Of a stretch of DNA of 64,000 nucleotides, positions 3-18,405 are shown in pieces; the stretch's first letter is position 1; every line of letters begins with the position of its first letter. The notes beneath the pieces were generated by a model. The model did not search any database. It saw only the letters and a program-made list of their open reading frames with translations, and was not told where the DNA came from. Source of the stretch: an uncultured Campylobacter sp. (GTDB lineage: Bacteria > Campylobacterota > Campylobacteria > Campylobacterales > Campylobacteraceae); contig CAURGM010000001.1 of assembly GCA_963524395.1 (NCBI GenBank), positions 26,013-90,012 of the forward strand, read 5' to 3'. The translations under genes and the position numbers were made by a program.

Positions 3-290
3 TTTAAACTAATAGGAAACGGTATAGTATGGCTAATTAGTTGGATAATTGGTTCTATCGTTTTTGTATTAGGTGTAATATTTTACATTATACCTGCAAA
101 AATATTAGATCGTATCTTAGGACGTAAAAAACATTCGAAAAAAGATGCTTCCGATGCAAACGACTATAACTACGACTTCTATCAATTAGATTCCTATACA
201 CAAGATCTAATAAGAAGCGCTAGAAAAAATAATTTTACATCCGTTCATAACGGACAAGATCTGCTTCGAGTAAAAGATTTTTTAGCTTAA
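3..290 (+). CDS. C-terminal fragment of a hypothetical membrane protein (5' end outside window)
   Basis: Open frame from the window edge to TAA at 288-290. Manual translation gives FKLIGNGIVWLISWIIGSIVFVLGVIFYIIPAK..., one hydrophobic helix followed by a charged tail. Confidence 0.35.
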   Translation, partial: FKLIGNGIVWLISWIIGSIVFVLGVIFYIIPAKILDRILGRKKHSKKDASDANDYNYDFYQLDSYTQDLIRSARKNNFTSVHNGQDLLRVKDFLA

Positions 291-322
291 TTAGTCATAG
301 TTGAAATAACGTTCGAATTTAC

Positions 323-457
323 GAAAGCTTATTTACCGTTAGGGGCAGCGCTGCGCTATCGCTTGCGCTGGGGGAAATCACAATATCGGAAAGAAAAGAA
401 TTTAATCGATCTTTCGTTCCCCCCGAGCGGAGCGGAGCGACGCTCGCTCCTACCGGT
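323..457 (+). repeat. Copy 1 of a 135-bp GC-rich structured direct repeat
   Basis: Near-identical to 4336-4472, differing by about four single-base indels or substitutions. Contains nested complementary arms: ACCGTTAGGGG/CTCCTACCGGT, CAGCGC/GCGCTG, GGGGGAA/TTCCCCC and GGAAAGA/TCTTTC. Confidence 0.85.
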
Positions 458-503
458 ATGATCAGTTACACCGATAGATAATCGAGCGTATTCTGTCGGA
501 GAG

Positions 504-2366
504 CTATATACCGCGATCTCTCATATCTTGAGAGCCTAAATTTTTCGATTTGTTTTGAGAAGGTAGATTTTTCTGTAGCGATGGAGATATTTCTGCGATC
601 TTCTTTTGAACTCTTTCATATGCCTTATCTATCATTTTTTGCTTATCCATTTCAAAATTTTCGCCTTTCTTTTGCTTCATCGCCGATCTCGTTTTAATGT
701 ATTCCTCTTTATTGAAAAGCCTAGCCGAAAATTCTAACATACCACCTGTATTGGGAAGCTCTTGTATATACGTGTCAAATTCATCGCTATAATCTTTATC
801 TAATAACTTATTGAGCGATCTCTTACATTTCATAAGAAGCCACTTACGAGCTTCTTCGTATGTTTCGAATTCGAGCTTTTCGTTAGTTCTATTTAATTTC
901 TCACTATATTTTACAAAGATCACATAAGGTTTTTTGAAATTGCGATTCCACCATTCTTCGCGCTCTTTCTCTTTACGTTCTTTGTTTTCCTTCTCTATAC
1001 GAGATTGCTGCGATGTAGATTTCTTCGGTGTAGCTGGTTTAGGCGCAATAGGCTGTGGTGTAGGTTTTTGCGTCGATTGCGATGCTTCTTGCTCGGCTTT
1101 TGTTTGAATAGGTTGCTTTTGAGAGAATAGCGATCGGAATTTATTTTTAACACTTTCCAATACGCGGACGTATCCTTCTCTACCGCTTGGTTTTTCAGGC
1201 TTTTTCTTTTTGATAACGACCTTTTCTTTATCTACTTTTTCTTCCGCAGCTTCTTCTACGACTTTTAATTCTTCAACCTTTTCCTCTACAATCTTTTTAG
1301 CACGTTCAAGTTGAGACAGCGAGAAATGGTTTTTATGTTTTCCATTGGGTAGGTTTTCCTTCTCGGTTTTCAGCAAAATTTTATCGCCTATACAGAGATT
1401 ATTATCATTACATATACGATCGAGATCAATACCCCTTACTCTGCTTGGTTTACCATTTGACGAGCGTAGTTTGATTTGATCCACTTTGCCATCGCTTTCG
1501 CGTCTAATGATCTCTTCGATCGTCATAAGGCGGTCAGGCTTTTCGTGCTCCGGATATAAAGTTTTATCAAAGCGCTTCGGATCATCTAGCTCATAACCGC
1601 GCATTCTCATTAATAGCGTCATCTCTTCACGCAATTCATACATTTTAGTGCGGTTAAGATCTTGATAACGACAAAGCACGTGTATATGTGGGAAGTTGCG
1701 TTCGCCATTTGGTCCTTTTCTTTGTTCGGGGTGTTGAGCGATTAGGCATTCATCATCGATCATCCATGAATGCCTACACTTCTCTACCGTTTGCTTCCAT
1801 GATTCTACAAGCGCTTCGGTGGCTTTACGCGGATCTTTGCATTCAGCTTTAACATGAAAAATCAGATGCATAGTTTGAGCGCGCTTTGAGTTTTTTTCAA
1901 AACCCGATATGAAATCATTAATCATAACGCGCTTTCCATCGGGATCTGAATGTTCAATATCAGAAAAGCCCGGAGCATAATGCGTTAATATAACATCGTC
2001 ATTTTTATCGTTCGATAGCCCTGCGATGTATTGTGCGGATCTAATGATTTGAGCTTGCGAATGATGTATGCTGCACTTTTTCATTATTAACTGATTTGAC
2101 GGTTTAGATCCACCGCTGCCATAATGCCCCTTTTTCTTATCGTCATAAAGCTTAGATGCTTTGGAGGGTTTCGGCGCTTTGGTAGATTTTGGCACTGGAG
2201 CTAATTTAAATTTGCGCTTTGGCTGATATTTCGCTTCGTTAGGCATAGCTGGTTTTGAATGATGCTTTATCCCGGTTGGAATATTGATTAAAGGCGCAAA
2301 TGGATCTTCGGCATCTACATACGATCGTGATTTATTATCCCAAACTTTTTTTGGCTGCAGTTTCAT
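504..2366 (-). CDS. MobA/VirD2-family relaxase (mobilization protein) with a long Lys/Glu-rich C-terminal region
   Basis: HLIFHVKAE and ERNFPHIHVLCRY resemble relaxase motifs I-III (histidine triad HxH). ATGA start/stop overlap with the upstream 199-aa gene. Confidence 0.65.
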   Translation of the reverse strand: MKLQPKKVWDNKSRSYVDAEDPFAPLINIPTGIKHHSKPAMPNEAKYQPKRKFKLAPVPKSTKAPKPSKASKLYDDKKKGHYGSGGSKPSNQLIMKKCSIHHSQAQIIRSAQYIAGLSNDKNDDVILTHYAPGFSDIEHSDPDGKRVMINDFISGFEKNSKRAQTMHLIFHVKAECKDPRKATEALVESWKQTVEKCRHSWMIDDECLIAQHPEQRKGPNGERNFPHIHVLCRYQDLNRTKMYELREEMTLLMRMRGYELDDPKRFDKTLYPEHEKPDRLMTIEEIIRRESDGKVDQIKLRSSNGKPSRVRGIDLDRICNDNNLCIGDKILLKTEKENLPNGKHKNHFSLSQLERAKKIVEEKVEELKVVEEAAEEKVDKEKVVIKKKKPEKPSGREGYVRVLESVKNKFRSLFSQKQPIQTKAEQEASQSTQKPTPQPIAPKPATPKKSTSQQSRIEKENKERKEKEREEWWNRNFKKPYVIFVKYSEKLNRTNEKLEFETYEEARKWLLMKCKRSLNKLLDKDYSDEFDTYIQELPNTGGMLEFSARLFNKEEYIKTRSAMKQKKGENFEMDKQKMIDKAYERVQKKIAEISPSLQKNLPSQNKSKNLGSQDMRDRGI

Positions 2367-2962
2367 TTTTTATTCTTTGGTTTGCGCTTTGAATGATCTT
2401 GACTTGTAAATTTCCTAGTTACGTGTAAGGGCTCAAAAAAATCTTTTAGTTTTGGACTATTGACATAACTAAGAATTTGCTCTTCTACTTTGTATGTATA
2501 TTCGATCAGATTTTCCTTTTCGGCTTGATTTAAATCGCTAGAAGTTAAAAAGAGCTGTATTAAATCTCGTAGCTGCGCATAAAGTTTTTTAAATTTTTGA
2601 GAGATTTTAGCTATGTCGATATAATACTTTGACGTTACATAATTACTGCCATAAAGCACACTGCGAAATGCGTTCGAGATGAATTCTCTAGGTATAAAAC
2701 CTCTATCAATAATCGCTTTAAGCTCACAATCGTAGAGTAAAATCATTATACCGTGTCGTTTATTTTCGGCAAAATTCATCGGCGGAAATTCTTCGGGCGA
2801 TCTATTCATTAGAGCATTTTGGAACAGACGAAGCATAAAATCTTTGTTACTTAATTTCTCATTCGGGTATAGTTCGTTTTTGAAAGCATTCATTTTGTCT
2901 TTGGGTATTTCAACATACGAAATATCACGAATTCGTTTTGGTTTTTGAATTGGATCTTGCAT
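2363..2962 (-). CDS. Hypothetical protein, possible relaxosome accessory protein
   Basis: 199-aa ORF translationally coupled (ATGA) to the relaxase and lying immediately downstream of the oriT-like region. No recognisable motif. Confidence 0.45.
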   Translation of the reverse strand: MQDPIQKPKRIRDISYVEIPKDKMNAFKNELYPNEKLSNKDFMLRLFQNALMNRSPEEFPPMNFAENKRHGIMILLYDCELKAIIDRGFIPREFISNAFRSVLYGSNYVTSKYYIDIAKISQKFKKLYAQLRDLIQLFLTSSDLNQAEKENLIEYTYKVEEQILSYVNSPKLKDFFEPLHVTRKFTSQDHSKRKPKNKK

Positions 2963-2992
2963 CTTTTATTCCTTTCTTTATAAATTTTATCG

Positions 2993-3090
2993 TGCGATAG
3001 CACTTGATTTTATACCTGCGATAGCACCACAAGCCGTCGGCAGGACCTAGGTGAAAGATAGCGTTGGTCTGACCAATGCTATCTTTCACC
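2993..3090. promoter_or_regulatory. Candidate oriT/operator: two 11-bp direct repeats plus a 41-bp near-perfect palindrome
   Basis: TGCGATAGCAC occurs at 2993-3003 and 3017-3027. GGTGAAAGATAGCGTTGGTC (3050-3069), T, then GACCAATGCTATCTTTCACC (3071-3090), with 1 mismatch. Located in the gap between the primase and the mob genes. Confidence 0.4.
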
Positions 3091-3115
3091 GTTCTGTGCA
3101 CTATATAAATTTCTT

Positions 3116-4297
3116 TCATTCTAATCCCTCTATATTATCGTCATATTCTCCACCGATCCATTTTCGTTTCCAAAAATAATCACAGATTTCTTTAGCAGCT
3201 TGGGATAAACTTAATCCTTTATGCGCGCTATAAAATTCTAAAAGGTCATTGCCGTTTTGAGTTTCGCCGAAGTCTGTAAAAATAAAATGGTCGTTCACTT
3301 TTTTAAAATGTCCGCTTGGATTTTTATCGTTAGCCCTGATACTAAAAGCATGAGACTCTGAAAAAATTGCATCCATCTTTTCGATCAAAAATTTTTTGAT
3401 GTTGTTTTCGTCGCCCAGAGCTTTTGATTTTTTAAGAGCTGAAAAATCTACCCAATCATTTTTTCTTATCACCTCCGGCTCACGATAAATTTTAATATCG
3501 TCTGGAGATGAAAAATCTTTTGCGACTGAATTTTTTCTAGGCTTATCGTCTTGAGTGGATAAAATTTTAACAGGCAAAGTTTTAAGCTCGCTTTGCTTTT
3601 TTAAAATTTCATCGCTTGTAATTTCGAAAGCCTTTCCATGATAAAAAGATTTTAAAGAAGGTCGAGAGCTTGCATAGCAGAAAAACATTCTTGCCTTATC
3701 GGTTACGGCTAAGTCGGAGTTTATTCCCAACTTTTCATTAGCTACTGCGTAAATCGCTTTTAAATTTTCGGGAGTTTGTTCTATCGGCAGAGTTTCGATA
3801 AAGATACGATAAGCATATTGGTTATTTGGATCAGACGTGCGACAGATGATGTGATCTATATTCATAGCCTTTAGCTTGTCGTGCATTTGCTGATCGCTAA
3901 GGGGTTTTGTATCGCCTTCGTGATAATCTACGTCCAAAACTAAAACTACGATCGGGAACAACTCGGTAGTATCATTACTGCGATAAGCTCTATCCTTAGG
4001 CTCTTGGCTACGAGCGCGTTCTTTGCTCTTTTCGCCGTAGAAGTATATGACTCCGTTCTTGCCGTGACGGATAAAAAGATGTTTATTCTTCTCCGTTCGA
4101 TAGCACTTATTCATAGCAAAGGCAGCAGAGCTACTAAGTAAACTTTCTAGATCACTAAAAGACGGGATATTTAAGCGATAGTTCGTAAAATACGTTGCCC
4201 TGCTTTTCATCTCTTCTTTCGTGATATTCGGATTATTCTTATTGCTTACGGACTCTTCCGGATCGTAAAACATTTTTATAGCAATGTATAATTCCAT
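3116..4297 (-). CDS. Primase-like replication protein: prim-pol-like N-terminal part and a degenerate DnaG-type zinc-binding-like C-terminal segment
   Basis: VVLVLDVDYHE (DxD) and IDHIICRTS resemble prim-pol catalytic motifs. C-terminal NDKNPSGHFKKV...FTDFGETQNGNDLLEFY resembles the CHC2 primase finger but lacks the Cys ligands. Confidence 0.5.
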   Translation of the reverse strand: MELYIAIKMFYDPEESVSNKNNPNITKEEMKSRATYFTNYRLNIPSFSDLESLLSSSAAFAMNKCYRTEKNKHLFIRHGKNGVIYFYGEKSKERARSQEPKDRAYRSNDTTELFPIVVLVLDVDYHEGDTKPLSDQQMHDKLKAMNIDHIICRTSDPNNQYAYRIFIETLPIEQTPENLKAIYAVANEKLGINSDLAVTDKARMFFCYASSRPSLKSFYHGKAFEITSDEILKKQSELKTLPVKILSTQDDKPRKNSVAKDFSSPDDIKIYREPEVIRKNDWVDFSALKKSKALGDENNIKKFLIEKMDAIFSESHAFSIRANDKNPSGHFKKVNDHFIFTDFGETQNGNDLLEFYSAHKGLSLSQAAKEICDYFWKRKWIGGEYDDNIEGLE

Positions 4298-4335
4298 ATA
4301 AAAAATCCTTTCTCCGATTCAATCGGTTATGATGA

Positions 4336-4472
4336 GAAAGCTTATTTACCGTTAGGGGGCAGCGCTGCGCTATCGCTTGCGCTGGGGGAATATCACAATA
4401 TCGGAAAGAAAAGAATTTAATCGATCTTTCGTTCCCCCGAGCGGAGCGGAGCGACGCTCGGCTCCTACCGGT
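4336..4472 (+). repeat. Copy 2 of the 135-bp GC-rich structured direct repeat
   Basis: Aligns base for base with 323-457. Lies 39 bp upstream (minus-strand sense) of the primase start codon. Confidence 0.85.
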
Positions 4473-4705
4473 CAAAGCTTTTTCATAATTAAATCAAGAC
4501 TATTTTCTTGAGAAATCTCGCTTTTCTCGAAATCAGCCAAAACGCCATAAACGGCTTTGCGATAATCTTTGCATATTTTTAAACGCCCTATATCGGTTGC
4601 CGCACACATACAACGCTTGTTCTTTTCATCATAATTCAAGCAACCCAAATAAAACTTCGAGCCGCCACTCTCGCATGGAGCACTAAAATTAAGATTATTT
4701 AACAT
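4472..4705 (-). CDS. Small cysteine-rich hypothetical protein (77 aa)
   Basis: ORF with 5 Cys (CESGG, GC, CMC, ICKD). Sits between the iterons and the structured repeat. No family recognised. Confidence 0.4.
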   Translation of the reverse strand: MLNNLNFSAPCESGGSKFYLGCLNYDEKNKRCMCAATDIGRLKICKDYRKAVYGVLADFEKSEISQENSLDLIMKKL

Positions 4706-4833: not shown

Positions 4834-4922
4834 AAAAACTGTAAAAACACCCCAAAAACTGTAAAAAACAGTTAAAAACTGTCAGAAAGGGGCAAAAAAT
4901 GTAAAAAAAGGGCAAAAACTGT
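4834..4922 (+). repeat. Five iteron-like direct repeats AAAAA(C/A)TGT at an exact 20-bp period (candidate oriV or operator array)
   Basis: Motif starts at 4834, 4854, 4874, 4894 and 4914. Intergenic, just downstream of the RepA-like helicase gene. Confidence 0.6.
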
Positions 4923-4976
4923 CAGGAGACCCTATTTTCAGTCAGCCTTAAGGTTTCTATTAAGCTAATATTAAGC

Positions 4977-5912
4977 CTACGAGGTATTTTGAGCCGGGTT
5001 CTCTTCCTTCCTTTCTAGCCCGTCCGATAAAACAGAAACCGCGAATCCGCCCTTTTCATCTATTTTTATACTCAAGTTTAGTTCATTTCCACCGGTGCGA
5101 GCTTTTTCTGTGGTAAATTTATAAACTATGTCATGTCGCTCTGTTATGTCGGATATACGTTCTACAAAGTAAGCCGTATCGATGGAGTTTTTAAAGCTTG
5201 CTGCCCCGCTATAGGTAGATGTTCCTTTTGGCATATGATTTAGAAAGATTATGCAACAGCCAAATTTATTACGCAAATTCTTTAAAACTTGCATAACGGC
5301 TTTTATATAAGTGTCGTCGGTCATATCTTTTTCAAGAATATCGCGAATGCTATCTATAACGATAACAGAATTTTTAAAGTAGGTTTTATTTTTTTTCGAA
5401 AAATCAAAACGCTTTAAAAATTCCAATAGCTTTTGAATAGGAAAATTTTGGTTCTTGTCTTGTCCAAAGCAGATATATTTAAAAGCAGGCTTTCTCGATA
5501 TAAGTCGATCCAAGCGCCTATCGCTTAAAGTAATCATGCCGTTATCGCAATCAAAATATATGACATGCTTAACCCCCGTTTTGGCTTTATTATCTAGCAT
5601 CCACCAACAAAGATAGGTAGTAGAAAGTGTTTTGCCAGTTCCTGCTTCTGCAAAAAGCATAACGTTGGTGTCAAAAGCTATAGCGCCCGGGATAATCCAA
5701 CGCACTTTTGTATTGCGTATCTCTTGGGGGGTTACCGCCATAGCATTTATACCTTCTATAGTAGGGCTAAATTGCTTGTTCTTTTTTGTAGTAATAGCAA
5801 GCTCAGCGCCGTTTAAAGACTTTTTCGATATAATAGAATTTTTATTTTCTTTAAGAAGCTCTTTATCTCTTTTAGAACCTTGAGATAAAGAGCCTTCTAT
5901 TTTCTCATTCAT
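4977..5912 (-). CDS. RecA-fold ATPase, RepA/AAA_25-type replicative helicase-like protein
   Basis: Walker A FAEAGTGKTLST and Walker B VIVIDSIRD. The 311-aa size and the context with a primase resemble plasmid RepA helicases. Confidence 0.6.
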   Translation of the reverse strand: MNEKIEGSLSQGSKRDKELLKENKNSIISKKSLNGAELAITTKKNKQFSPTIEGINAMAVTPQEIRNTKVRWIIPGAIAFDTNVMLFAEAGTGKTLSTTYLCWWMLDNKAKTGVKHVIYFDCDNGMITLSDRRLDRLISRKPAFKYICFGQDKNQNFPIQKLLEFLKRFDFSKKNKTYFKNSVIVIDSIRDILEKDMTDDTYIKAVMQVLKNLRNKFGCCIIFLNHMPKGTSTYSGAASFKNSIDTAYFVERISDITERHDIVYKFTTEKARTGGNELNLSIKIDEKGGFAVSVLSDGLERKEENPAQNTS

Positions 5913-6141: not shown

Positions 6142-6298
6142 GACATTTTCCTTTCAAATATATCATAGCTTATTTAAGTAAATTATACTCCTAATACCTT
6201 AAATTTCAATTAAATAGATTATGATATAAATATTATTCAATTAGTAAGCTAGTTTGGCGTTTTAAATTTCTATAAATTCCAAATCTTAAGCTAAAATT

Positions 6299-6339: not shown

Positions 6340-7035
6340 GGAATGAAAACAAATGGCGAAAAGCTAAGAAATCTTAGGACGGCTTATGGATTATCACAGG
6401 AGCAATTCGGAAACGCATTGTCGATTACTAAGAGTAGTATAAATGCTTATGAACATGATCGGAACCCGATAAATTCTAACGTTAAGTATAAAATATTGCA
6501 GGCAACAGGTATCGGTTTTGATTATTTTGATACGGATATGGAGTTGTGGGAAGCTTTTGCAAAGTATGGATTAGACCCTAATCATTTAAAGCTAAAGTCA
6601 TTTACGGAGTGTATAGTTTATGTTTATCCTTCTATAAGCGATTTCGCAGCTAGAGAAAGGGCAATACAAGAAAAAAGAGGCGAAGTAGATTTTTTAGAAT
6701 TTATTACAAATTATAAAAATTCTAAATATTGTCTAGTAAAAGTAAGGAACGGTGAGGGTGGCTTTATAGCACAAGAAGGAGATATCTTAGTGCTAATCGA
6801 TGATGATGAACCTCTGACAGAAGAATGGATTATAGCTAAATATAGAAATAACACTTTCATTGTTCAATATTTCTTTGTTTCTGATGATGAAATAGAGTTG
6901 AGATCGTCTATGTATAATTTTAAATTTAGTGAAAAGAGATTCAAAGACGAAGTTGAGATTGCGGGCGTGATAAAGTCTAAAATCCCTAACCCTATCAAGA
7001 TCAAAGAAACTATACCGGATTATTTAAAAAATTAG
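6340..7035 (+). CDS. XRE/cI-type HTH repressor with a C-terminal S24-like domain lacking the catalytic Ser
   Basis: MKTNGEKLRNLRTAYGLSQEQFGNALSITKSSINAYEHDRN is a classic HTH_3 motif. Start moved to ATG 6340 because it has an RBS. The C-terminus (GEGGFIAQEGDILVLID...AKY) is LexA/cI-like in layout. Confidence 0.7.
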   Translation, partial: GMKTNGEKLRNLRTAYGLSQEQFGNALSITKSSINAYEHDRNPINSNVKYKILQATGIGFDYFDTDMELWEAFAKYGLDPNHLKLKSFTECIVYVYPSISDFAARERAIQEKRGEVDFLEFITNYKNSKYCLVKVRNGEGGFIAQEGDILVLIDDDEPLTEEWIIAKYRNNTFIVQYFFVSDDEIELRSSMYNFKFSEKRFKDEVEIAGVIKSKIPNPIKIKETIPDYLKN

Positions 7036-9013: not shown

Positions 9014-9088
<75 letters not shown>

Positions 9089-9129
9089 ATACAAGAAGCG
9101 CAAATGAATTTTAAAACAGCATTCGCGAT

Positions 9130-9204
9130 TGGATGGGGTAGGAGGATTCGAACCTCCGAATGATTGGACCAAAACCAATTGCCTTGCCGCTTGGCTATAC
9201 CCCA
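9130..9204 (-). tRNA. tRNA-Gln (anticodon TTG)
   Basis: Reverse complement is TGGGGTATAGCCAAGCGGCAAGGCAATTGGTTTTGGTCCAAT...TTCGAATCCTCCTACCCCATCCA. Cloverleaf with loop TTTTGGT. Confidence 0.9.
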
Positions 9205-9797: not shown

Positions 9798-10081
9798 GGT
9801 TTACTCCTTAAATAAAATTCATCCCGCATACCTATATGCGAAACTTGGCAGAATTATAGAGAAAAATTTAAAAATTGTCAATAGTTTTTAGCAAATTTTT
9901 TACAATTTATTTATAAAGTCCGATTTTGCGGGCATTTTAAAATCAAAATTTTAAGTCCGCCTCGTTCTATTTGATGTATTTTGACGGCGCCTTGCACATT
10001 AAAATTAATAGCATAAATTAAATACTTATTCTCACGTTTCCACGCGCCGCCCAATAAACCCTATCTATTAGCGATACGGGA

Positions 10082-11254
10082 CTACAATCCGTATCGCTTA
10101 GTCAAAATTTCATAGTTCTCTACGCGTCTATCGCGCAAAAACGGCCACCAACGGCGCACGTTTTCGCATCTTTGCATATCGATCGCTACGACTTCGCATA
10201 GCTCGTCGGTGCTGTTTGCGCGAAATAGCTGCTCGCCCTGCGCGCCAAAAACAAAGCTATTACCCCAAAACCTAATCCCTTCTTCGCTGACAAGCTGGTC
10301 CACGCGCTGTTTATTCGGCAGCACCTCTAAAGTTTCGCCGTTAAATTTAATCTCTATAGAAATTTTTAAATTCTCTCGCGCCGCCTCATTTTTCGCGGGC
10401 AAAATTTCGCCGCCGATCGCCATTTTGCCGCCACCCGTTAGCGCCTCGTTATTAAAGGATAAAATTCCGCCCTCGCTTAAAATTTTACTCTCGCTGCTCA
10501 CATCCGCGGAGCGCGAAATTTTATCGCGCATATTCAAATTTGCTTCACTCCCGGATAAAATTTCATCCGGTGAGATCTCGCTAAGCGCGGCGCTTTCAAA
10601 ACCCACGCGATTTACGGCGACTACGGGTAGAGAGTTTGCCACTACATGCCCGCGCTGTACCGCAACCCAAGCCTCCAGCTGACGCGCTTTTTCGTCCTCG
10701 CCGTCGCCGTCGAACCACCCGATCGCGGTCGGATATATGAGCAGCTCGGCACCGCGTAGCGCCATCGCGCGCGCCGCTTCTGGATACCACTGATCCCAGC
10801 ACACCAGCACGCCGAGCCGCCCCACGCTCGTATCTATGGGCTCAAAGCCCAGATCGCCCGGCGTGAAATAAAATTTTTCGTAAAACTGCGGATCGTCGGG
10901 AATATGCATCTTGCGATACCGACCCGCGATAGAGCCGTCGCGCTCGAAGACCACGGCGGTATTGTGATACAGCCCCGCGGCGCGGCGCTCAAAAAGCGAG
11001 CTTACCAGCACGACGCCAAATCTCTTCGCCACCTCGCTCCACAGCCGCAAATCGCGCTCAAAATCCTGCGCGTAGTCGAAATTTTCGGTATTTTCGCGCT
11101 GGCAAAAATAATGCGTCTGATGAAGCTCTTGCAAAACGATTAACTGCGCACCTTTCGCCGCCGCACGCGCGATGAGCTCGATACTGCGCGCTATCGTGCG
11201 CGCTTTAGTTCCTTCAAATTTATGCGAAATCAGCCCAACTTTTAAAATTTTCAT
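10082..11254 (-). CDS. aguB: N-carbamoylputrescine amidase (carbon-nitrogen hydrolase) with a ~100-aa internal insertion
   Basis: Nitrilase-superfamily triad context (LQELH, YRKMH, VCWDQWYPE). Adjacent to the agmatine deiminase gene. Confidence 0.8.
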   Translation of the reverse strand: MKILKVGLISHKFEGTKARTIARSIELIARAAAKGAQLIVLQELHQTHYFCQRENTENFDYAQDFERDLRLWSEVAKRFGVVLVSSLFERRAAGLYHNTAVVFERDGSIAGRYRKMHIPDDPQFYEKFYFTPGDLGFEPIDTSVGRLGVLVCWDQWYPEAARAMALRGAELLIYPTAIGWFDGDGEDEKARQLEAWVAVQRGHVVANSLPVVAVNRVGFESAALSEISPDEILSGSEANLNMRDKISRSADVSSESKILSEGGILSFNNEALTGGGKMAIGGEILPAKNEAARENLKISIEIKFNGETLEVLPNKQRVDQLVSEEGIRFWGNSFVFGAQGEQLFRANSTDELCEVVAIDMQRCENVRRWWPFLRDRRVENYEILTKRYGL

Positions 11255-11274
11255 ATTTTTCCTTCGATCTAAAT

Positions 11275-12267
11275 TTAAAGTTTAAATTTATTCATGCACG
11301 AGCAGTGCAGCGAGCCGTTTTGGCGGATGAAAACGCGCGCATTCACTCCCACTACTTCGCGATCCGCGCATGCCGTACGCAGACGCGACAGCGCCAGCTC
11401 GTCCGCCGCGCGATTTGGATCATGCGGATCTGCGGGGTCTGCGTAGGTAGGTACGATGAGCGCGCCGTTTAAAAAGACGAAATTTGCATACGTCGCAGGC
11501 AGCCTACGCCCCTGATAAAGGATCGCGCGCGGGATCGGCAGTTCGATCACGTCGTATCCGAGCGATAAAATTTCATTCCTCATCGCGCCAAGCTCTGCAT
11601 AGTGTAGATCGCTCGGATCGTCGCACGACGAAATAGCCACAGTGCGCGGGTTTAGAAAGCGCGCGAGGGTATCGACGTGACTATCGGTGTCGTCGCCTTT
11701 GATGAAGCCGCGTCCCAGCCAGATTATGTTTCTTAGGCCGAAAATTTCACGCAGCCGCGCGTCCAGCTCGGCCTTGCTAAGGGAGTTGCGATTTTCATTC
11801 AGCAAACACGCGCTGGTAGTTAGCATCGTGCCCGCGCCGTCAAAATCGACGCTACCGCCTTCTAAGATCAGATCTACGTCTCGCAGCGGGCGCTCGCTCG
11901 CGGCGTAAAGCTTGGAATTTAACGCGTCGTCCTTGGCGCTTGCAAATTTGCCGCCCCAGGCGTTGAAACGAAAATTTAGTCCCGTGATTTTGCCGCCCTC
12001 CTCCACGTCGATCGCGCCGTAATCGCGGATCCATGTATCGTCGGTGTCGATTTGCGCGAAGTTGACGTTTGCTAAGCCGCCGCAAATTTGCTCAAAATCC
12101 TCGCGGCTCGGCGCGATCGCGACGATAGGCTCAAACCTCGCTGCGGCGGCGATAAAGTCGCGATAAGCCGCCCGTATCTCGCCTAAATACGGCGCCCAGT
12201 CGGTACCTGTGTGCGGCAAAGACACCAAAAGCGCCTCTTGCTCTTCCCATTCGGCGAATGCTCTCAT
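11275..12267 (-). CDS. aguA: Agmatine deiminase
   Basis: PAD_porph-type motifs (TWIRDYG, DTDSHVD, GSLHC at the C-terminus). 330 aa. Confidence 0.8.
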   Translation of the reverse strand: MRAFAEWEEQEALLVSLPHTGTDWAPYLGEIRAAYRDFIAAAARFEPIVAIAPSREDFEQICGGLANVNFAQIDTDDTWIRDYGAIDVEEGGKITGLNFRFNAWGGKFASAKDDALNSKLYAASERPLRDVDLILEGGSVDFDGAGTMLTTSACLLNENRNSLSKAELDARLREIFGLRNIIWLGRGFIKGDDTDSHVDTLARFLNPRTVAISSCDDPSDLHYAELGAMRNEILSLGYDVIELPIPRAILYQGRRLPATYANFVFLNGALIVPTYADPADPHDPNRAADELALSRLRTACADREVVGVNARVFIRQNGSLHCSCMNKFKL

Positions 12268-12331: not shown

Positions 12332-12408
12332 TGGTGCGCCCGGAGGAATTCGAATCCCCGACCTTTTGAACCGCAATCAAATGCTCTATCCAGCTGAGCT
12401 ACGAGCGC
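12332..12408 (-). tRNA. tRNA-Arg (anticodon read as GCG)
   Basis: Reverse complement is GCGCTCGTAGCTCAGCTGGATAGAGCATTTGATTGCGGTTCAAAAGGTCGGGGATTCGAATTCCTCCGGGCGCACCA. Cloverleaf with loop TTGCGGT. Confidence 0.8.
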
Positions 12409-16205: not shown

Positions 16206-17279
16206 TTATTCTACGTAAATTTTATAATCCCCGTAGCCTAGCGCGTCCATCTCCTCAAGCGGGATAAATTTCAAACTCGCGCCGTTGATGCAGTATCTCA
16301 TACCGCCCTTCTCTCTCGGTCCGTCATCAAAGACGTGCCCTAAATGGCTGCCTCCTACGCGGCTGGAGACCTCGACGCGCTGCATGCCGTGGCTGTCATC
16401 TTGCGCATAGGCGATCGCATCGGTCGTTATCGGCTTTGAAAAGCTCGGCCAGCCGGTGCCGGAGTTGTATTTATCGGTAGAGGAAAAGAGCGGTTTTTTC
16501 GACACGATGTCGACGTAGATGCCCTTTTTATAATTCTTGTCGTATTCGCTAGAAAACGGCTGCTCGGTCGCCTTTTCCTGCGTGACTTGATACTGAAGCT
16601 CGGTCAAATTTTTCTTCAGCTCCTCCTTACTTTGCACTTTAAATTTTTCATCATCCTCAAGCGGCTTTTTAGCAAGGCGCAGATCGATGTGGCAATATCC
16701 GCCAGGGTTTTTACCGAGATAGTCCTGATGATACTCCTCGGCGCGGACAAAATTCCTTAGCGGCGCCACTTCTACGGCGATCTTTTCTTTAAATTTTGCC
16801 TGCTGCGCCGCTATGAAAAAGCGCGCCAGCTCGCCGCTCGCCTCGTCGGCATAGTAGATGCCCGTGCGGTATTGGCGCCCGCGGTCATTACCCTGCTTGT
16901 CGATCGAAAACGGATCGATGATGCGGAAATAATGCGCCAAAATTTCAGGTTCGCTGATGATGTTTGCGTCGTATTTTAAGTGTAGCGTCTCGGCATGATC
17001 GCTGCTATGCAGCCCTTCGTAGCTTGCCTTATCGCTCTTGCCGTTGGCGTAGCCTACCTGCGTCGCGACTATGCCGTCGAGCTGTTTGTAATACGCCTCC
17101 ATGCCCCAAAAGCAGCCGCCTGCTAGATAAATTTCTTTTACGTTTGCGTTCACGCCGCCTCCTTTAACTTTAAAATTTGCGTCCGACGCACCGGCGCTAC
17201 TGCCGCCTGCAGCATTGAGCGCGACTAAATAACCCGCCGCCAAAGCAAAGAGGCAGATTAAAACTTTAGAAATTTTCAT
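16206..17279 (-). CDS. msrAB: Bifunctional peptide methionine sulfoxide reductase MsrA/MsrB, secreted
   Basis: [11 protein letters not shown] (MsrA), plus GWPSF and RYCINGASL (MsrB). Signal peptide present. Start set at ATG 17279 with an AAAGGA RBS. Confidence 0.85.
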
Positions 17280-17344
17280 TTTGATCCTTTCGTTTTGAAT
17301 TTTGCGCAATTTTACAATCTCTAAATGAAGCGAGAGTGAAAGAG

Positions 17345-18405
17345 AGAAATTTTATCGCTTACGACGGATCGCTACCCAAATTTTATCGCCGCAGGATCGG
17401 AGCTTTCGGCTCGCCGTCACCGCAGAATTAGAATTTTATCGCCGCGGTGAGGCGGGACCAAAAATTTTACCTTACCGCGGCGGCGCAAGATCAAAATTTT
17501 ATCTTACCGCAGCGCGCTGCAGCATCGGAATTTTACCTCCTCGCAAGCGGTTAAAATTCTACGCTATAACGAGGGCTGAAATTTTACCGCCGCCGTCAAG
17601 ATTAAAATTTTACCGCTTCAGCAGGGGGGCGGATTTCGCTAACGCGGCAAGCGGTTGGATTTGATCGCCGCGGCAGGAATTAAAATTTTGCTACCGCTGC
17701 AGGGTTAGAATTTCATCGCCCCCTGCGCTACGATGAAATTTGTCCCTTTTGTGAGCGAGACCCTTGCGCCGTCGATTCGCCTGCGCTACGGCTCGCGTGA
17801 AATTTATCCATTCGTCGCGGCTTACGTGGAGATTTTAGAGATCTTGATACGCCCTATTGCGGCGCGAAATTTTATTGTCGCGCCTCGCGGCTAGATTTTG
17901 CTACCATCGCGGGGATCAAAATTTTACCGCCGCGCAACCGTGGCTTGAGCCTGATTTAGCGCCTTTGCGAGTTTTACGACGCGGCCGAATTCTACCGCGC
18001 GCCGTTTTGCGAGGGCACGGACTGCTCGCGGGACGGAAGCTTTGCACTGCGCCCGCTGCTCTACTACGCGATTAAATTTTATCTACGCACCGCTTCAAAT
18101 GCGGCACGGCGTCCATCCGCTTGCCGCGCGATTAAAATTTATCTACGAGCGCGCCGATCGCGACGAGGCGCCGCCTTAAAAATTTATACTCCGCTCCGTA
18201 TCTGCTGCGAAACGGCGCCGAAATTTCAACGCAAAATAGGCGCCATGAAATTTTCGCGCCGTGAGATAAAATTTGCGCCGTTGTGTGACGGCGAGGCGCG
18301 AACCCATCCGCTGCGCGCGCGATTAAATTTAAAATTTTCGCGTTACGGCCGCTAGATAAAATTTCGCGACCATTCAAGAGCGGCGGATGATTAAAATTAA
18401 ACTGC
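17345..18405 (+). repeat. Degenerate array of about 25-28 same-orientation (R)AAATTTTA(Y)C..CGC motifs in a gene desert
   Basis: Motif occurrences read by eye at 17348, 17378, 17432, 17461, 17494, 17528, 17553, 17579, 17604, 17681 ... 18391. Spacing is 22-85 bp. Confidence 0.7.

Follow-up and report, generated by a model that had tools for sequence, protein, structure and literature searches.

Complex single-strand initiation (ssi) sites have been described in IncQ plasmids only, where ssiA and ssiB each measure 40 nt, nt 7-27 forming a hairpin and the primer starting in the tail on its 3' side (PMC8567376). In the integrative element ICEBs1, the single-strand origin (sso) sso1 is localized immediately 3' of the relaxase gene, on the displaced strand, and is orientation-specific; the conversion of single-stranded DNA (ssDNA) to duplex has been characterised for very few integrated mobilisable elements (PMC4595007). 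The present analysis concerns a 135-bp element found twice, at 323-457 and 4336-4472, in a window of 64,000 nt of an uncultured Campylobacter sp. (contig CAURGM010000001.1, positions 26,013 to 90,012; all coordinates below are those of the window unless another sequence is named). This element is real, conserved and non-coding, and is contained in no database searched. By analogy with the systems above, it would be a DNA site acting in cis for a small integrative mobilisable island, i.e., a pair of ssi- or sso-like signals, a reading to which a probability of about 0.4 is given. The value is not higher because no homology to known ssi or sso sites was found.

The preliminary description of this DNA had reported a near-identical direct repeat with a 4013-bp offset, forming a GC-rich island in AT-rich DNA, and both statements are borne out. 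In the alignment, 323-457 (135 nt) and 4336-4472 (137 nt) differ by four 1-nt indels, all within or beside homopolymer runs, and by no substitution. The similarity ends abruptly on either side; the copies are in direct orientation with a start-to-start distance of 4013 nt. The chance expectation for a 44-nt piece of the repeat is 0 occurrences. The G+C content is about 50%, the arms being much richer, vs. 30-40% in the surrounding DNA. A coding function is ruled out because one-base indels separate the copies. The minus strand of the window carries every gene found between the copies and is here called the gene strand. The upstream copy (4336-4472, minus) lies between the stop of a 77-aa gene and the start of a 393-aa open reading frame (ORF), which begins 38 nt past it. 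The downstream copy (323-457, minus) lies between the stop of a 620-aa ORF (at 504), 46 nt past that stop, and a convergent ORF ending at 290.

Two GC-rich units of about 39-41 nt, U_A and U_B, make up each copy as an inverted pair. On the gene strand, the upstream copy is made of the reverse complement (rc) of U_A (4472-4434), an AT-rich spacer (4433-4389), U_B (4388-4348) and a 3' tail, TAAATAAGCTTTC (4347-4336). On the plus strand, the downstream copy is made of the tail (323-334), rc(U_B) (335-374), the spacer (375-418) and U_A (419-457). The AT-rich spacer is 44-45 nt long and the tail, next on the gene strand, about 13 nt. Within a unit, the order is a CCCCC 5' end, a (GAGCG)n/(AGCGNN)n hairpin, the sequence CC-TA[A/C]CGG[G/T] and then A/T-rich bases. 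The motif CYCCTAMCGGK is observed 4 times in the window, vs. 0.03 expected. It must be noted that U_A in the window (425-439 and 4439-4453) contains a perfect (GAGCG)x3 where most other islands have GAGCG GAGCG CAGCG; (GAGCG)x3 is a private variant common to both window copies.

The wider search of Campylobacterota genomes suggested by the preliminary description recovered the element in one family of islands only, i.e., integrase-borne islands of about 10 kb in uncultured oral Campylobacter (one genome, one metagenome and one viral scan). A scan with a 32-nt arm pattern gave 6 metagenome matches and 0 viral matches. The related contigs and islands that were fetched are numbered L001-L028. In all related islands that were examined, the upstream copy is flanked as in the window, i.e., by the 77-aa and 393-aa genes. 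A full copy downstream is limited to the window, L012, L016, L020 and L021, L001 being consistent with one; these two-copy islands are exactly those with the window-type C-terminal part of the relaxase-like protein (residues 394-620) followed by the convergent ORF. The bracketing of a primase-relaxase module by the repeat, as initially described, holds in the window and in this subset and is not family-wide; a "repeat bracketing module" is a description of a sub-lineage, not of the island family.

In the islands devoid of a full second copy, the relaxase-like gene is followed by U units, 0-1 nt past its stop codon. Two directly oriented units, U_A and, about 150 nt further on, U_B', come after this stop in L002, L011 and L013. 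L005, L017 and the degraded L023-L027 have one unit, i.e., GGAGCGCA, a 4-6-nt loop and TGCGCTCC, then TACCGGGATACTAATA. At all of the at least 12 loci with single or direct-pair units behind the relaxase-like gene, the units occupy the gene strand, i.e., the strand bearing the RP4-like nick core GGTCCTG/CC (the slash stands for the nick, or for its predicted counterpart). Since the inverted, direct and single arrangements use the same units, the U unit, and not the 135-nt hairpin, is probably the conserved functional piece. The hairpins of the U units range from -7.4 to -13.6 kcal/mol, those of ssiA and ssiB being -8.7 and -8.4 kcal/mol, respectively. The sequence of about 150 nt enclosed by the direct pair of L002 (13456-13675) and L011 (7532-7751) is GC-rich and includes a hairpin GGGATAG..CTATCCC.

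The surroundings of the upstream copy also resemble those of the IncQ sites. An array of iterons is localized at 4834-4933 (minus), with a 20-bp period repeated 4.4 times and units (C)TGACAGTTTTT and TTTACAGTTTTT. It lies downstream of the gene for a 311-aa RepA-like helicase (4977-5912, minus), which matches Pfam AAA_25 at 3.4e-12 and IncQ RepA by BLASTP at E=3e-5 over 71 aa. The array is likely the initiator-binding part of the island replication origin. The sequence TGACAGTT, the core of the IncQ (RSF1010-type) iterons, has two occurrences in the 64 kb, both inside the array. Arrays are present only in islands with the 311-aa helicase, and none was found in islands with the 479-aa alternative protein; this confinement fits a cognate initiator-origin pair. 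In the IncQ1 plasmid NZ_CP031119 (L031), rc(ssiA) and ssiB are 72 nt apart and cover 152 nt, and the distance to the 22-bp iterons (TGACAGTTATTGCAGGGG) is 178 nt. The corresponding values for rc(U_A) and U_B of the island are 44/45 nt, 135 nt and, to the 20-bp iterons, 362 nt. In both pairs, it is the 5' ends of the units that face the spacer. The comparison with the IncQ ssi sites leads to the conclusions that: (i) a U unit agrees with an ssi unit (about 40 nt, 5' part, hairpin, 3' tail) in anatomy only; (ii) the pair of units agrees with the IncQ pair, i.e., complementary strands, inverted, near iterons.

The element is constrained at the level of its sequence. Substitutions are found in 11 of the 138 columns of 13 orthologous upstream copies (8%), vs. 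21 of 85 variable fourfold degenerate sites in the adjacent 393-aa gene (25%; 16.6% for all sites), with a binomial p of 4e-7 for the element against the fourfold sites. The variable columns are distributed as 2 of 40 and 2 of 41 in the arms and 3 of 32 in the left 32 nt of the spacer, with a peak at the spacer-half junction CCG/ATATTG (3 of the 11 variable columns; here the slash is the junction). Purifying selection acts on the sequence of the 135-bp element. The element is constant beside the 393-aa gene while the helicase-iteron and relaxase-oriT modules are exchanged. In 3 of the 5 two-copy islands, the copies share island-specific variants, with 2-4 differences within an island vs. 6.6-8.1 between islands, as is expected from ordinary gene conversion between the 135-bp repeats.

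The relaxase-oriT module contains a site resembling an origin of transfer (oriT), at 3030-3090 (minus), between the 393-aa and 199-aa genes. It consists of a near-perfect 20-bp inverted repeat (3050-3069/3071-3090), then TAGGTCCTGCCGACGGCTTG (TAGGTCCTG/CCGACGGCTTG on the gene strand). The sequence of the inverted repeat differs among the relaxase variants a, b and c, and each one folds (DNA z-scores of -5.4, -3.8 and -6.0). The core GTC..CGAC after the inverted repeat is kept, also in the island L028, where an inverted repeat and TTTGTCAGGCGAC are found before the relaxase gene (2560-2640 of L028). The sequence CTTTCACCTAGGTCCTGCC resembles the RP4 nick region CTTCACCTATCCTG/CCC (TTCACCTATCCTG/CCC), the RP4 sequence having been checked in IncP plasmids. 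By analogy with RP4, the nick of the island would fall between 3041 and 3040. The gene strand is predicted, from this RP4-like core, to be the nicked and transferred strand. As judged from its sequence, 3030-3090 is a better candidate for the definition of an oriT than the 135-bp element, since it shows what is expected of an oriT of the MOBP/MOBQ type, namely an inverted repeat with a nick core within about 8-10 nt, specific to the cognate relaxase. The 135-bp element was considered as an oriT and rejected: it has no nick core and is unchanged across the three relaxase variants, the variant-specific site being that at 3030-3090. An ORF of 64 aa at 2925-3119 is probably spurious.

If the element is a pair of initiation signals, it would act as ssDNA and prime the synthesis of the complementary strand in the following way. 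The RepA-like helicase would open the DNA at the neighbouring iterons, or a strand would be displaced or transferred from 3030-3090. The U units, once single-stranded, would form hairpins. A primase, i.e., the 393-aa protein or a host enzyme, would bind these hairpins and start the complementary strand, in the manner of RepB' at IncQ ssiA/ssiB and of sso1 of ICEBs1. At the vegetative origin, both strands would have their initiation signals in the upstream inverted pair. After the relaxase gene, priming of the strand predicted to be transferred would fall to the downstream copy or, in other islands, to the single or double U units. The analogy with ssiA/ssiB of RSF1010 had been proposed in the preliminary description as one of three possible roles; the inverted pair of hairpins of about 39-41 nt, the iteron core and the RepA-like helicase make it closer in anatomy than first stated, while the 393-aa protein has no significant similarity to RepB'.

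Several observations weigh against this reading: (i) a blastn search with the repeat against 72,556 plasmids, 224 of them with an IncQ ssi region, gave no match, and the U units share only TTCCCCC with ssiA/ssiB; (ii) no homology to known sso (ssoA/U/T/W and pTA1060 type) was detected in the plasmid collection, nor any Rfam family; (iii) the comparison of the 393-aa family with RepB' gives an hhalign probability of 0.14%, Smith-Waterman z-scores of 0.17 and -1.1, and no Pfam RepB_primase; (iv) the 393-aa protein has no significant similarity to any primase, but only a sub-threshold zinc ribbon and motifs judged by eye; (v) the iteron array is limited to the islands with the 311-aa helicase, and the 8-mer common to the island and IncQ iterons was noticed post hoc; (vi) the adjacency of the element and the 393-aa gene could be plain linkage; (vii) the U units abut stop codons and sit between convergent genes, which suits RNA hairpins too; (viii) no compensatory change was found among 41 predicted pairs in 12 copies, these copies being about 94% identical and too alike to inform, so that the support for the stems envisaged in the preliminary description was not obtained from covariation.

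The 393-aa ORF (3116-4297, minus), initially called a primase, belongs to an orphan family with the motifs LDVD and NH..TS..N..R. Its homologues are 86-98% identical and all come from human oral metagenomes and metagenome-assembled genomes of uncultured Campylobacter. The family has eight weak distant relatives, none with a primase-related Pfam domain, and an alignment with five distant relatives keeps LDxD...D, H and NH..TS..N..R. The C-terminus resembles a zinc ribbon of the DnaG type in degenerate form, its match to Zn_ribbon_DnaG being below threshold (E=0.16). A relationship to RepB' was considered on account of motifs that are alike by eye and was rejected, the alignment statistics being null. 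The label of primase is thus a lead, taken from sequence motifs. The 393-, 199- and 620-aa proteins have no match in Pfam, PHROGs, NCBIfam, the PDB (sequence and profile searches) or, by tblastn, the 72,556 plasmids. Homology searches and an exhaustive representative search with the three ORFs returned only close Campylobacter relatives or unannotated weak matches. The initial names of primase and relaxase therefore received no confirmation from these databases, and they are given because of motifs alone. The AlphaFold models were set aside as fold evidence, their pLDDT of 37 (393 aa) and 50 (620 aa) being too low.

A more elaborate version of the priming reading, to which only slim odds are given, is that each copy would be a self-contained two-strand priming cassette. 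It would be read by an orphan primase family unrelated to RepB', i.e., an independent IncQ-like solution in Campylobacterota. In the two-copy islands, the 4-kb segment (primase-like gene, oriT-like site, accessory and relaxase genes, one cassette) could then be a nested mini-replicon copied or mobilised apart from the 10-kb island. Should the priming reading itself be true, it would provide a pair of priming site and primase outside IncQ plasmids, a clue to the conversion of a transferred single strand to duplex in integrated mobilisable elements, and functions for two orphan protein families.

The best surviving alternative, although an unlikely one, is a role at the RNA level in the punctuation of the operon, the transcribed hairpins being an attenuator, a terminator or a 3'-end stabiliser. 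In this case, the upstream copy would set the level of the 393-199-620 mRNA, and the downstream units would end or protect the transcript at the convergent gene. The copies are on the gene strand, within or at the end of an apparent operon starting from the promoter-like site 6209-6182. The upstream copy begins at the 77-aa stop, the U units lie 0-1 nt past relaxase stops, and the downstream sites are between convergent genes. Both strands of the repeat were folded as RNA, as the preliminary description had proposed, and each is more stable than its shuffles. The gene strand reaches -54.4 kcal/mol (z-score -3.3), which suits an RNA hairpin; nevertheless, the plus strand, i.e., the antisense one, folds better than the mRNA strand (-61.3 kcal/mol, z-score -4.5). 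The lowest-energy fold is a single long imperfect hairpin. The closed multi-helix junction first described is feasible and suboptimal: with its three hairpins, it has -50.7 vs. -56.7 kcal/mol for the best fold as RNA, and -27.3 vs. -28.7 kcal/mol as DNA, i.e., a penalty of 6 and 1.4 kcal/mol, respectively. The long hairpin is moreover not the conserved feature, the units being used in direct as well as inverted pairs, and conservation of the arms and of 32 nt of the loop is at the level of sequence, not through compensatory change.

The searches for a known RNA signal were also negative, in agreement with the initial statement that no RNA family or terminator class is recognised. Rfam, at gathering thresholds and at E<=10 over 250-4600, gave nothing relevant, no tRNA- or tmRNA-like element is present at the repeat, and the promoter and terminator scans made no call inside 323-457 or 4336-4472. 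The feature of an intrinsic terminator is missing, since no T (or U) run follows any of the hairpins, the tails being TAAATAAGC and ATGATCAG. A role as anti-Shine-Dalgarno sequence was tried and rejected: the repeat end CUUUCUC can pair with GAGAAAGGA of the 393-aa gene (4288-4349, minus), with a z-score of -0.7, i.e., no better than shuffles. The cis-regulatory or non-coding RNA proposed in the preliminary description is thus kept as a rival, with neither Rfam match nor covariation in its favour. If it were true, the element would be an ordinary operon hairpin, mainly of interest for the annotation of Campylobacter islands.

It is improbable, more so than the RNA role, that the U units are secondary recognition or termination sites for the relaxase-like protein, of the HUH (His-hydrophobic-His) type, or for its partners. 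If one unit were the point of initiation and the next unit of that strand the point of termination, a single-stranded circle of 4 kb would be set free, containing the mobilisation genes together with the 393-aa gene and the oriT-like site; recombination between two oriT, or the ori and ter ends of rolling-circle transposons, would be comparable. A hairpin with a conserved short tail has the typical shape of an HUH substrate. In every island, U in the same orientation on the gene strand flanks both sides of the 393-199-relaxase segment, and relaxase remnants too keep U right after the gene. On the contrary, the site 3030-3090, variant-specific and with an RP4-like core, is a much better oriT candidate, and the U units are unchanged while the N-domains of the relaxases fall below 20% identity. 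The variants shared between copies in 3 of the 5 two-copy islands would fit such a circle, but sharing is missing in the other 2 and is expected from gene conversion. Finally, a circle junction would read CTGATCAT-repeat-TCATCATA and a deletion junction AAGCTTTG-repeat-GTAAATT. The 24 copies have flanks in two combinations only, never recombinant, and contain no empty site, circle junction or deletion junction.

The protein concerned is encoded by the 620-aa ORF (504-2366, minus), with an N-domain at residues of about 90-340 carrying relaxase-type motifs and a C-terminal module at 394-620. Y113, H212 and H227-x-H229 are invariant across the three variants, the N-domains of which are from less than 20 to 50% identical. 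The position of the Tyr upstream of H..HxH is the relaxase motif order. hhalign places LIAQH..PHIHVL on the metal motif LAIH..PHCHLM of RSF1010 MobA, with a probability of only 2%, and Foldseek with the 620-aa model gave no match at E<=0.001. From these motifs, the 620-aa protein is likely a relaxase.

It is very doubtful that the U units are a selfish or structural repeat of the kind formed by repetitive extragenic palindromes (REP) and their paired forms (REPIN), spread within the island without serving it. On the other strand, a unit does consist of (C)CGGTAG and then an imperfect palindrome, an inverted doublet folds into a long hairpin, and the units are extragenic, directly after genes. 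Nevertheless, only 2 full copies are present in 64 kb, and all copies found belong to this island family, at two fixed positions. Moreover, there is no IS200/IS605-type gene and no REP-associated tyrosine transposase (RAYT, an IS200/IS605-like Y1 HUH transposase), Pfam giving no Y1_Tnp or other such match; the HUH-like protein has the relaxase motif order, and the purifying selection exceeds that on the neighbouring coding sequence.

The least credible explanation, also proposed initially, is that the copies are attL/attR-like junctions of a 4-kb plasmid-like circle integrated in a larger island: the sharp-ended direct repeats 4013 nt apart around replication and mobilisation genes, and the contig L001 (3959 nt) with both ends inside the repeat (3959+55 = the repeat period), would fit it, but the 393-aa gene and the upstream copy are in all islands and hence leave no empty site, islands with other relaxases have the same gene order and no full second copy, the two flank combinations of the 24 copies include no recombinant one, the segment contains no recombinase (the integrase is encoded at another place and acts at tmRNA or tRNA-Val sites), neither DNA nor protein comparison gave a related plasmid or phage, and the ends of L001, which was thus rejected as a free 4-kb circle, are assembly breaks as a de Bruijn assembler makes at any two-copy repeat.

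The island family to which the element belongs is not previously described, and none of its core proteins has an annotated relative. Read on the gene strand, an island starts with a cI-like repressor gene (divergent from an HTH_17 gene), the helicase-like gene and small ORFs; next come the 135-bp element and then, in this order, the 393-aa, 199-aa-type and relaxase-like genes, accessory genes and a tyrosine integrase gene. The islands are inserted at tmRNA or tRNA-Val; the integrase end of the window island is beyond position 1. The whole 4.2 kb has no DNA similarity to phages or plasmids. A strong promoter-like site, TTGAAA-16-TATAAT (11/12) at 6182-6209 (minus), precedes the HTH_17 gene, diverges from the gene of the cI-like repressor and is likely the early promoter of the island. 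The 77-aa Cys-rich ORF (4472-4705, minus), whose stop codon abuts the first base of the repeat, is 79-92% identical in other islands. The 199-aa ORF (2363-2962, minus) is exchanged along with the relaxase variant, and its product is possibly a relaxosome accessory protein.

The islands are mosaics (window 504-2366; L002, L005, L020; proteins P0014 and P0015), with three N-domain variants of the relaxase-like protein, each with its own 199-aa-type partner and inverted repeat, and two helicase modules. Chimeric proteins combine a variant-c N-domain with the 230 C-terminal residues of window type. In L013, direct repeats of 79 nt, 84% identical (6897-6975 and 17115-17193; tmRNA at 17284-17645), look like attachment sites of a 10.2-kb island at the tmRNA. 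The degraded L023-L027, beside panB, contain a 300-aa relaxase-like remnant with a single U after its stop, small ORFs and an integrase; L026 has in addition immunity-like genes and a Phage_GPA-type Rep nearby. A distant AT-rich island, L028, contains a cI-like gene, a helix-turn-helix gene, an integrase and relaxase-like (535 aa), P-loop (414 aa) and primase-like (353 aa) proteins. In this island, four strong CGCT-rich hairpins (6965-7200 of L028, DNA z-score -8) come right after the primase-like gene, the product of which is 27% identical to the 393-aa protein; this block counts in favour of the priming reading. Outside the island, the G+C content of the window rises to 50-66% at 10050-12000 (minus ORFs of 390 and 330 aa), vs. 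about 30-40% in the island; this region lies between tRNA-Met/Gln (9014-9204) and tRNA-Arg (12332-12408).

The comparison with known systems can be expressed as likenesses and differences. As with IncQ ssiA/ssiB, the island has two inverted units of about 40 nt, iterons of 20-22 bp with TGACAGTT, a RepA-type helicase and a MOBQ/P-like mobilisation system. Unlike IncQ, it has an AT-rich spacer, a small gene between the iterons and the pair, and a second full or partial copy 4 kb off; it is chromosomally integrated, belongs to Campylobacterota and has no identified RepC-like initiator, and its 393-aa protein has no detectable relationship to RepB'. The sso of rolling-circle plasmids and sso1 of ICEBs1 are, like the element, non-coding, strongly structured and of about 130-200 nt, and the downstream U units after the relaxase-like gene are comparable to sso1 in position and, if the gene strand is the transferred one as predicted, in strand. 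Types of sso are nevertheless recognised by a homology that the element does not have, and its host is a Gram-negative epsilonproteobacterium.

The oriT of MOBP/MOBQ systems (RP4, R1162) resemble the 135-bp element by an inverted repeat beside a short conserved sequence, intergenic in a mobilisation module. The RP4 core TTCACCTATCCTGCCC has its counterpart in the oriT-like site of the island, TTCACCTA(GG)TCCTGCC, whereas the 135-bp element has no such core and is not relaxase-variant-specific. REP and REPIN share with U the GTAG with an imperfect GC-rich palindrome, the single, direct and inverted doublets (the inverted one being a long hairpin), the extragenic position right after genes and the HUH-type gene nearby. 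They have tens to hundreds of copies, against 2-3 U per genome region at fixed island positions and no RAYT. The ori and crr of phage P4 are octamer iteron arrays bound by the alpha primase-helicase, not hairpin pairs. They are comparable to the island in that two cis sites are about 4-4.5 kb apart around the primase gene of a small integrative satellite-like element, while two full copies are present in only a subset of the islands. Mobile elements with DNA sites of this kind, for priming or for another role in cis, are known; what is new is the sequence of the site, its partner protein and the fact that it is duplicated.

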